A DNA stretch of 11,181 nucleotides from Candidatus Margulisiibacteriota bacterium (lineage in GTDB: Bacteria; Margulisbacteria; WOR-1; O2-12-FULL-45-9): NCBI GenBank assembly GCA_043816785.1, contig JBDRHP010000073.1, positions 1-11,181 of the forward strand. The letters run 5' to 3'. Positions 688 to 2,277 of this stretch are shown here, piece by piece (positions within the stretch are counted from its first letter, which is position 1; every line of letters begins with the position of its first letter). The notes under the pieces were generated by a model. The model was given only the letters and a program-made list of their open reading frames with translations. It was not told the origin of the DNA and did not search any database. Made by a program: the position numbers and the translations under genes.

Positions 688-719
688 AAGGAACCTGCGA
701 CTGAACGTCGCGGTTCCTT
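688..719 (+). repeat. 32-nt bulged hairpin element, copy A; may double as a weak alr terminator
   Basis: AAGGAACC-T-GCGAC-TGAAC-GTCGC-GGTTCCTT: 8-bp stem, 1-nt bulge, 5-bp stem, 5-nt loop. It starts immediately after the alr stop, is preceded by GTAG (684-687) and runs into TTTT (718-721). Confidence 0.85.
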
Positions 720-725
720 TTGCTT

Positions 726-757
726 ATGGAGCCGAGACGTTTAGTCTCAGGCTCCAT
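726..757 (-). repeat. 32-nt bulged hairpin element, copy B (inverted relative to copy A)
   Basis: Reverse complement reads ATGGAGCC-T-GAGAC-TAAAC-GTCTC-GGCTCCAT: same architecture as copy A and 25/32 identical. Confidence 0.85.
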
Positions 758-765
758 GAAAAATT

Positions 766-2277
766 ATGAGTTACATATCTTTATATCGAAAATGGCGGTC
801 ACAGGACTTTGACGAGATAATCGGCCAACCGGCGATCGTCCAGACTTTAAAAAACGCGATCAAAAATGATCGCTTGGCCCATGCTTATCTATTTTCCGGT
901 CCCCGGGGCACGGGCAAAACCTCATTGGCCCGCATACTGGCCAAAGCCCTGAATTGTGAAAACGGGCCAACGCCAAAACCTTGCGGCAGCTGCCAAAATT
1001 GTCTCAAGATCAAAGACGGCCATTCAGTTAATGTGATCGAGATCGATGCTGCCTCAAACCGCGGGATCGACGAGATCCGCGAACTCCGCGAAAGGATCCG
1101 CTACGCTCCGGTTGAGGGCCGATATAAGGTCTATATTATTGATGAAGTCCATATGCTTACTCCGGAAGCCTTTAATGCGCTGCTTAAAACTTTGGAAGAG
1201 CCGCCAGCCCACACGATTTTTGTTCTGGCGACCACCGAGCTGCAAAAAGTGCCTTTAACCATTGTTTCCCGCTGTCAACGCCTGGATTTTGGCAGGATAA
1301 AACTGGCGGAGATCGAGCAGCATTTAAGAAATGTCGCCAAAGCTGAGGGGTTTGAGATCGATGATAAGGCGGTTAACCTGATCGCGCGGGTCGGTGAAGG
1401 CTCAATGCGTGACGCTATTTCCCTTTTGGACCAGGTGGTTTCTTTCTCCGGGCAAAAGATCACCTATGACAGCGTAGTCCTGCTGCTGGGAACGGCTGAT
1501 GAAGAGCTGCTTTTTGCTTTTGGTGAGGCTTTGGCTGCTGCTGATCCTGCTAAAGTTTTGCAGCTGGTAACGGATGGCCTGGCGGAGGGCCGTTCGACCC
1601 AGCAAGTTACTCGCGACCTGGTTTCCCATTTTAGGAACCTGCTGCATCTTAAGGTTGGCTCCAGTGAAGCGCTTGAGCTGACCAGTGATTATTTAGAAAA
1701 ATTAAAACAACAAGCAGAAAGTTTTTCCCTGAAGAAAATAAAAGAGGTGATTAGCGCTCTTTCCCGGGCTGAGCTGGATATGAAGTGGCATCCGCATGCG
1801 AGACTTGTATTAGAAGTAACTTTGCTTGAATTGCTTGAGCAACCGGCTGAAGTTATTGCAGTTGTGGAACCCGAGAATAAACTTCCCTGCCTGCCGGCAG
1901 GCACGGTCGGTTCCACAAAGGTAAAAACTGAGGAGCCGAGACGCCTGCCTGACGGCCAGCTCGCTAAGATCAAGACCAACTGGCAGGAAATCCTTGAGGA
2001 GGTTAAGAAGAAAAGTATTTTTGGTTATGTTTCTTTGCATGAGGGCGAGCCGCTGGAGATCAATAACAGAGGAAAACTGGTCATTGCTTTCCGGCGTGGT
2101 TATGCTTTTCATAAAGAACGTTTGGAAGATGCCAAAAACAAGCTGGCGGTAGAAGAGGCTGTGGGCGTAATTATTGGCGAGAGGGTCCCCATTGAGTGTG
2201 TAGTGAGCGAAGGCAAAAAGGAATCAGCGATTTCTGCCAATGCCGTAGCGGAGTTTTTTGAAGGGAGAGTGCTTTAG
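766..2277 (+). CDS. dnaX: DNA polymerase III subunit gamma/tau
   Basis: LYRKWRSQDF N-terminus, Walker A GPRGTGKT, zinc module LNC..PCGSCQNC, EIDAASNRG, Walker B IIDEVHML, NALLKTLEEPP, SRC motif. Followed by ybaB-recR. Confidence 0.98.
   Translation: MSYISLYRKWRSQDFDEIIGQPAIVQTLKNAIKNDRLAHAYLFSGPRGTGKTSLARILAKALNCENGPTPKPCGSCQNCLKIKDGHSVNVIEIDAASNRGIDEIRELRERIRYAPVEGRYKVYIIDEVHMLTPEAFNALLKTLEEPPAHTIFVLATTELQKVPLTIVSRCQRLDFGRIKLAEIEQHLRNVAKAEGFEIDDKAVNLIARVGEGSMRDAISLLDQVVSFSGQKITYDSVVLLLGTADEELLFAFGEALAAADPAKVLQLVTDGLAEGRSTQQVTRDLVSHFRNLLHLKVGSSEALELTSDYLEKLKQQAESFSLKKIKEVISALSRAELDMKWHPHARLVLEVTLLELLEQPAEVIAVVEPENKLPCLPAGTVGSTKVKTEEPRRLPDGQLAKIKTNWQEILEEVKKKSIFGYVSLHEGEPLEINNRGKLVIAFRRGYAFHKERLEDAKNKLAVEEAVGVIIGERVPIECVVSEGKKESAISANAVAEFFEGRVL
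1862..1918 (+). repeat. 32-nt hairpin element, copy C, inside dnaX and interrupted by a 21-nt palindrome
   Basis: GTGGAACC-C-GAGAA-TAAAC-TTC[1886-1906]TC-GGTTCCAC. The outer stem extends to 10 bp (TTGTGGAACC 1862-1871 / GGTTCCACAA 1909-1918). Confidence 0.85.
1886..1906. repeat. 21-nt GC-rich palindromic insert CCTGCCTGCCGGCAGGCACGG
   Basis: Contains the perfect 16-nt palindrome TGCCTGCCGGCAGGCA (1888-1903). Removing the insert restores the host hairpin and keeps the dnaX frame. Confidence 0.85.
1932..1960. repeat. Partial copy D of the hairpin element plus a partial second CCTGCCTG palindrome
   Basis: GGAGCCGAGACG (1932-1943) is identical to 728-739. It is followed by CCTGCCTGACGGC (1944-1956), 12/13 identical to 1886-1898. 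Confidence 0.7.

Follow-up and report, generated by a model that had tools for sequence, protein, structure and literature searches.

The 21-nt insertion that interrupts a hairpin repeat inside the dnaX gene of the Candidatus Margulisiibacteriota genome studied is a copy of a real micro-element that occurs across phyla and is nested here in a REP-like hairpin. Apparently, this element has not been published before. It was found in the window, i.e., the whole analyzed stretch of 11,181 nucleotides representing contig C73 (JBDRHP010000073.1) of a 1.53-Mb genome (G000). The insert may be a copy of a gene-less mobile hairpin of 20–21 nt that enters its targets precisely, without duplication and with a defined polarity, by a copy-and-paste process involving single-stranded DNA and a putative cut-and-join enzyme acting in trans, most plausibly of the HUH (Y1) type; we give this reading just short of an even chance.

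The features of the dnaX region are compiled in Table 1. A previous sequence-only reading had described an in-frame insert of 21 nt splitting hairpin C, and both its sequence and its frame were confirmed. The description of the insert as a palindrome applies to its perfect 20-nt core, but not to the 21-mer itself, which consists of these 20 nt plus one C. As predicted, the host hairpin regains the family consensus with zero mismatches and the frame is kept once the 21-mer is removed. The breakpoint is unique and corresponds to position 20 of the 28-nt host, the stem of which reaches out to positions 1862–1918. The TTCTC arm expected for uninterrupted hosts was found in eight intact copies featuring GAGAA..TTCTC (e.g., C5:36318 and C49:12990). 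Since such hosts exist, both TC dinucleotides at the insert belong to the host, and no target-site duplication was thus generated, in agreement with the earlier claim. The intact doublet located between alr and dnaX serves as a local empty-site reference. No matches to Rfam covariance models were obtained at E ≤ 1 for positions 600–2800 of the window.

Table 1. Features in and around dnaX; positions are those of the window.
Feature	Position	Strand	Remarks
21-nt micro-element	1886..1906	+	CCTGCCTGCCGGCAGGCACGG; 20-nt perfect palindrome plus one C; seven codons in frame
Host hairpin C	1866..1914	+	Family A; 28-nt core split into 1866–1885 and 1907–1914
Half host hairpin D	1932..1943	-	Inverted relative to C, with which it forms a REPIN-like doublet; interrupted at the main insertion junction of family A
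Truncated second element	1944..1956	.	1944–1950 element-derived; 1951–1956 probably native D-G codons
dnaX (DNA polymerase III tau)	766..2277	+	Inserts in variable linker before C-terminal domain
Intact inverted doublet of host family A	690..755	.	690–717 on +, 728–755 on -

According to Pfam, the 21-mer resides in the dnaX linker between domain III and the C-terminal domain. The same 21-mer was detected in 2 out of 29 orthologous dnaX linkers, located there inside different host repeats, and host family A was found in none of the 29. These findings indicate that the linker is a tolerant site that was struck independently. An orthologous empty site was considered as a reference and rejected, because the linker is too divergent for comparison. 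Across the class, dnaX linkers gather many repeat families, including tandem units and hairpins (loci L002–L030). In the window, a family-A doublet would have entered the linker first, both hairpins C and D would then have been struck by the element, and the second element, in hairpin D, would later have been truncated via a putative microhomology deletion. This second copy, which had also been proposed previously, is probably a real but truncated insertion, since it begins at the junction where 18 other host halves bear a different insert of 42 nt. A degenerate element was observed at the same host junction at C60:7489. However, only 1944–1950 is clearly derived from the element, because the dipeptide D-G encoded by 1951–1956 recurs in several orthologous linkers (by eye).

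Insertion without duplication was also evident at other sites. On contig C24, the 20-mer exactly interrupts a spare tRNA-Leu 5' half, as judged against the intact gene downstream, and in MutS, a D and a P are set apart by seven residues stemming from the 21-mer, at a point that contigs of other organisms run straight through. A target-site duplication was ruled out at the host-A and tRNA-Leu sites. Insertions into tandem repeats and into the element itself likewise speak against a duplication. Neither an empty allele, proposed earlier as a check in strains or reads, nor an excision junction was seen among the contigs of four runs at two loci, which shows no absence of such alleles, since contigs drop rare variants.

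The basic unit of the element is the perfect 20-nt palindrome CCTGCCTGCCGGCAGGCAGG, represented by 28 exact copies in this genome and by 43 copies at up to two edits. Hence, the motif has the further genomic copies that the sequence-only reading called for, and these dispersed exact copies support its notion of a mobile unit far too small to encode anything. The length of about 21 nt assumed therein has to be revised to mainly 20 nt, although 21-nt subfamilies exist: the variant of the window carrying the extra C (three copies in this genome) and a second +1 variant, AAGG (five copies). These 21-nt forms are favored in ORFs, as 15 out of 29 21-mers, versus 9 out of 83 20-mers, are contained in long ORFs (p = 1.7e-5; this genome and loci of five relatives). 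Whether lengths within CDS are multiples of three had been posed as a check; in this genome, 8 of 9 copies of 21 nt and 11 of 33 copies of 20 nt are located inside CDS (crude gene caller). In ApbE, a 20-mer lies in frame with a net gain of seven residues compared to the orthologues, which implies one compensating base. The copies are singlets or self-nested, and self-nesting was observed to produce inserts of 32–50 nt at one host site (L047, L204–L206, and L210 of G006; L130, L143, L151, and L153).

Three Markov-3 null genomes contained no copies at up to two edits and two each at three edits; together with the reversed genome described below, these controls ruled out a chance origin of the element and host copies. 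An 18-nt part of the element was detected in 36 of the 41 class genomes, with 0 to 31 copies apiece (reversed control: 0). The 21-mer of the window occurs identically in at least 118 GTDB stretches, and about 13 phyla are represented among the 80 titled stretches of the matches listed. Viral stretches contained the 21-mer in five and the 20-mer in 40 cases; cultured plasmids and phages yielded partial matches at chance level only. An assembly or library artifact is unlikely, because an independently assembled contig, which may originate from the source sample, covers positions 975–2008 gap-free, copies are present in single-contig genomes (G016, G031; L139), and the frame and junction biases are of biological nature. 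In the literature searched, none of the texts contained 17 nt of the element in a row or used its peptides in a relevant way, and topical searches revealed nothing on the element. These searches covered running text; the element or host A could be listed in figures and supplements, e.g., in the REP consensus figures of PMC3733652 or in the supplements on REPs and SRMs that accompany PMC6006769 and PMC11893778.

Host family A represents a 28-nt hairpin with the consensus GRARCC-N-GMGAM-TRAAC-KTCKC-GGYTYC. After excision of the element, 102 copies were counted in this genome and none in the reversed genome, and the family was found in 31 of the 41 class genomes. Its stem covaries, with 95–99 of 99 distinct copies being Watson–Crick paired at each of 11 pairs, four of which switch type; the search pattern was built from the hairpin itself and favors pairing. 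A variable stem extension of three or more pairs was present in 41 of the 99 copies versus 4 when shuffled, and 60 of the 99 belong to inverted doublets. In 21 of 30 homologous loci, host A flanks an IS200-like Y1 transposase gene, and the host-A count follows that gene (rho 0.60). The encoded protein scored above the NF033573 cut-off for IS200/IS605 and below the NF047646 cut-off for RAYT. Since host A flanks this Y1 gene and its count tracks the gene, the family is REP-like, and hairpin C is a REP-like repeat of an IS200-like Y1 transposase. Regarding the three features that define REP membership, the covarying doublet hairpin and the Y1 flank were found, whereas no foot of the GTAG type, i.e., no conserved flanking 4-mer, was detected among the 99 distinct copies. 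Close to contig ends of this genome (e.g., C8:78, C88:78, C60:77, and C61:22179), host-A copies were noticed that form two sets of six, each identical in both repeat and flanks, which suggests a collapsed multi-copy IS200-like element.

The sequence-only reading had proposed that the element prefers other hairpin repeats as targets. This preference is real but partial, with the majority of copies being located elsewhere. Besides REP-like hairpins, enriched targets include spare tRNA halves and tandem-repeat linkers, and ordinary genes are struck as well. When hairpins were called by an objective stem criterion, they contained 26 of 110 non-ORF sites of the class, compared to 8.9% of the intergenic positions of this genome (p = 3.5e-6), and 13 of 81 cross-phylum sites (p = 0.027); the background stems from one genome only, and the counts may be too high owing to copies amplified along with their host. 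A folding z-score test also indicated a modest hairpin preference (19 of 110 sites versus 16 of 209 controls, p = 0.013). For this genome alone, 2 of 30 non-ORF sites were located in hairpins, which is not significant, and a k-mer test yielded 3 of 24 intergenic (p = 0.09) and 2 of 19 coding sites (p = 8e-4). Host A contains 4 of the 43 copies in this genome, with 0.77 expected under a generous intergenic model (p = 0.007). Among the copies examined in relatives, host A harbors 10 of 28 in G011, 7 of 22 in G006, and 6 of 7 in G036, and none in G024 (0 of 27) and G026 (0 of 3).

Hitch-hiking, meaning that a single insertion per genome was amplified together with its host REP and that copies survived in dispensable DNA, might mimic such a preference. 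The six of seven copies of G036 sharing one position and one variant, the five copies of G006 at position 20, and the non-significant non-ORF enrichment within the own genome would fit. However, six different host-A positions are used (11 and 16–20), three variants occupy position 20 in differing host copies of this genome, and inserts are shared between host subtypes distinguished by compensatory pairs. While hitch-hiking may inflate the counts, it leaves mobility and polarity unexplained, and we consider it highly improbable as the source of the preference.

The strand polarity of the joints was missed by the earlier interpretation, which is supported in part. With the extra C as a marker of orientation, a pyrimidine comes directly after the window variant in 117 of 121 distinct sites (C 101, T 16). 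The first base is C in 83% and the base thereafter G in 46% of these sites, and judging by eye from tandem-repeat and self-insertion sites, the 3'-adjacent C is the host's own. For the AAGG variant, it is the preceding base that is constrained, being a purine in 29 of 30 sites; outside these 30, an AAGG copy on contig C104 of this genome has a C before it. For the symmetric 20-mer, a pyrimidine/purine joint is the sole class breaking the rule on both strands, and it was found in 5 of 87 class copies versus a background of 22.6%, and in 2 of 39 copies on viral contigs versus 25%. In three relatives, the 23 insertions listed for host A (positions 11 and 16–20) are all followed by a pyrimidine when read along the A strand of the host. 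On the strand with a target ending in a purine, the 3' end GGCAGG of the element is constant and its 5' end varies. Since this conserved 3' end faces a pyrimidine on one strand, the target on the other strand is cut 3' of a purine, mostly G. Furthermore, the asymmetric variants recur in a fixed orientation. A blunt double-stranded palindrome would yield no polarity, which argues for a single-strand intermediate, and bulged variants remain unchanged across phyla, which points to copying from a template rather than to de novo fold-back. From these patterns, we infer that each event is strand-specific and template-copying.

In the preferred reading, the hairpin element would be copied as single-stranded DNA from a template, and an enzyme provided in trans, plausibly of the HUH (Y1) type, would cut the target 3' of a purine and join the element. 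Hairpin-rich dispensable DNA may be a frequent target owing to its exposure in single-stranded form and its tolerance of inserts, and selection would retain frame-preserving copies within genes. Counting against this reading, no leading- or lagging-strand bias was seen (56 versus 60 of 117; a weak test by local GC skew). The 39 in-ORF sites showed no coding-strand bias (20 forward, 19 reverse). IS200/IS605 elements have one active strand, the bases 5' of the cut define both cut sites, and their hairpin-acting enzymes work strand-specifically in joining single strands (PMC6006769 and PMC3333891). The polar joints of the element resemble this strand-specific chemistry. A circle of 20 nt, however, would be very small for a transposition intermediate, which also counts against the preferred reading.

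A polar single-strand process would also be compatible with spread via an RNA copy and target-primed reverse transcription, and the genome encodes one reverse transcriptase and tRNA-derived sites are frequent. Such a route should be regarded as very unlikely, though, as it is opposed by the even use of both coding strands, by the lack of duplications and of a truncation series, and by the fact that no element is listed near the reverse transcriptase at C20:66648. This gene (C20:66648–67286; a 456-aa open frame) lies about 1 kb from a four-helix-bundle gene.

The variety of targets invites another explanation, according to which host repair captures the hairpin as a patch wherever resident repeat-cutting nucleases (Y1 at REPs, Ssn at SRMs, DUF559, and others) leave nicks, so that no dedicated transposase would be needed and the sites would be set by the enzymes of the host repeats. 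Targets do span repeats of many unrelated nuclease systems (by eye), other micro-elements use the same sites, and copy number shows weak correlations with the four-helix-bundle (IVP; rho 0.42) and DUF559 (rho 0.37) genes, uncorrected for kinship and for six tests. However, hosts, phyla, and plain coding sites all obey a single junction rule, and the two variants differ in the constrained side; both observations fit an element-directed enzyme better than many cutters. Since, moreover, the source of the oligonucleotide is left unexplained, repair capture appears unlikely to us. In a bolder view, which we hold to be doubtful though worth considering, the element would be the flagship of undescribed single-strand hyperparasites of 19–21 nt, the smallest transposable units of bacteria, crossing phyla unchanged, nesting in REPs, tRNA halves, and each other, and being pasted with polarity by one unrecognized integrase or housekeeping enzyme. 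As the two variants constrain opposite sides, the target base would then be read from the element itself.

Correlation across genomes had been suggested as a means to find the responsible nuclease or transposase; none of the candidates turned out to be a decisive correlate among the 41 class genomes. Y1 content hardly follows the element copy number (rho 0.11, n = 41), nor does the host-A Y1 gene (rho 0.02 in class genomes), and an element lies within 250 nt of the Y1 gene in 1 of 30 host-A-type loci. Y1 genes were not detected in 4 of 12 high-copy genomes (those being 81–90% complete), and G004 contains eight Y1 genes and no element. In other phyla, the element occurs in the hairpin arrays of Y1 genes in 4 of 19 loci, solely nested in the REPs of those genes, and no Y1 gene with the element as its own flanking repeat was found. 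Solo copies share no neighbor gene, the 150 of 338 candidate ORFs scanned representing housekeeping families plus one GIY-YIG gene.

Small GIY-YIG nucleases lodged at tRNA genes were weighed as well. Such a nuclease might recognize the hairpin, as Ssn does NTS, and free and re-insert it with the help of host repair. The element lies within 250 nt of 12 of 101 tRNA-lodged genes (6 of 9 in the tRNA-Leu(TAA) group) and beside two of the six small GIY-YIG genes of this genome, and all 12 high-copy class genomes carry a cassette-type gene. Yet 37 of the 41 genomes possess such a gene, so that its presence is uninformative (rho 0.20), and the association needs eight changes on the tree (82 columns only, with the Leu(TAA) group weakly supported). 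The element-bearing genomes G066 and G068 have no cassette-type gene at E ≤ 1e-8, none of 18 GIY loci from other phyla bears the element, and the gene is present at only 1 of 123 21-mer loci and 2 of 60 class loci. In addition, the same tRNA-fragment site accepts several different micro-elements in a hot-spot-like manner, and Ssn has been demonstrated to cut only (available part of PMC11893778). A role of these nucleases in moving the element is therefore improbable, and the tRNA/GIY-YIG cassettes are read as an insertion hot spot comparable to host A. In the ESM Atlas, the C24 nuclease matched generic GIY-YIG clusters only.

Several further repeats and micro-elements were observed. The small GIY-YIG genes lie between a 5' tRNA fragment and an intact tRNA (L244–L247, L308–L337, and L401–L420), their tree groups largely by tRNA type, and most of the fragments bear a micro-palindrome of a group-typical kind. 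A 19-nt sister micro-element occupies the same tRNA-Leu D-arm site at C24:5779 and at C105:4327 and 4773 of G000, with C being the next base in 3 of 3 cases. The 42-nt composite insert was found at position 16–18 of host A in 18 copies of G000 (e.g., C10:13966 and C88:5590); it spans four host subtypes, was never found alone, and is present on C88 in a doubly nested form of 84 nt. Within the window, a composite hairpin (CCTCACC...CCCTCTCC family) is located at 2590–2700 between ybaB and recR, and four other copies of this family in the genome (C16, C49, C79, and C85) carry the 20-mer (by eye). At C77:4995–5810 (L249, G000), a GIY-YIG gene resides in what resembles a group I intron of a tRNA, with more hairpin repeats inserted. 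G065 features five near-identical small GIY-YIG genes in tandem at C1:543448–545089, spaced by 352 nt.

Among known systems, the SDRs of Nostocaceae cyanobacteria come closest in behavior. They are reported (Elhai et al. 2008) to be gene-less repeats of about 20 nt that are regarded as mobile, and SDR5 reportedly inserts precisely inside another repeat, HIP1. By definition, SDRs measure 21–27 nt, are dispersed, and insert precisely, often into other repeats. We know of no enzyme responsible for their movement. Being dispersed and precisely inserted, often in repeats, the element fits these criteria. It differs in being a perfect 20-nt palindrome identical over about 13 phyla rather than restricted to one cyanobacterial family, and in its loose polar purine/pyrimidine target instead of a fixed octamer. 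SDRs are mentioned in citing passages of PMC4390886 and PMC2884548.

With the REP/REPIN-RAYT and IS200/IS605 systems, the element shares short hairpins of comparable length, copies lying in frame within flexible linkers, the occurrence of REPs inside other palindromes, and a strand-specific single-strand chemistry (PMC6006769, PMC3333891, PMC3116915, and PMC3733652). Unlike host A, which fits the REP kind with its doublets and Y1 gene flanks, the element shows no GTAG/GTGG or CGTC foot in its flank logo, where one polar base class is constrained; it is a singlet instead of an inverted doublet, lacks its own REPtron, and does not vary in step with Y1 genes, as detailed above. It is SDR-like in behavior and plausibly REP/IS200-like in chemistry.

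An oriented hairpin repeat beside a single-domain GIY-YIG gene is also a feature of Ssn-NTS/SRM (Chenal et al. 2025; PMC11893778). However, the element differs in sequence from the NTS motif/SRM consensus given there, a CGTC-tagged hairpin, its association with GIY-YIG genes is sporadic, and the available text reports no demonstrated joining activity for Ssn. The SRM-flanked Ssn-like gene on C33 of this genome is free of the element and forms a branch separate from the tRNA-lodged genes. Rickettsia palindromic elements (RPE) likewise reside in frame within functional genes, but are lineage-restricted, with RPE-1 being much longer and RPE-4/6 representing CGTC REPs (PMC3733652). Assignment to MITEs, which possess IS terminal inverted repeats, generate duplications, and are 70 bp or longer, was rejected for a duplication-free element of 20–21 nt.

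To our knowledge, the movement of repeats of about 20 bases has been an open question since the cyanobacterial SDRs. The element makes this question testable, as the substrate is invariant, strand polarity can be read from two variants that carry a natural mark, host A (positions 11 and 16–20) is a defined hot-spot target, and the candidate enzymes form a short list. In uncultivated phyla, essential proteins gain short peptides from the element (LPAGRQ, LPAGRHG, and CLPAGTV), a point of relevance to annotation and to the evolution of proteins. If true, scarless and polar insertion of 20-nt hairpins would represent a new DNA-joining activity.
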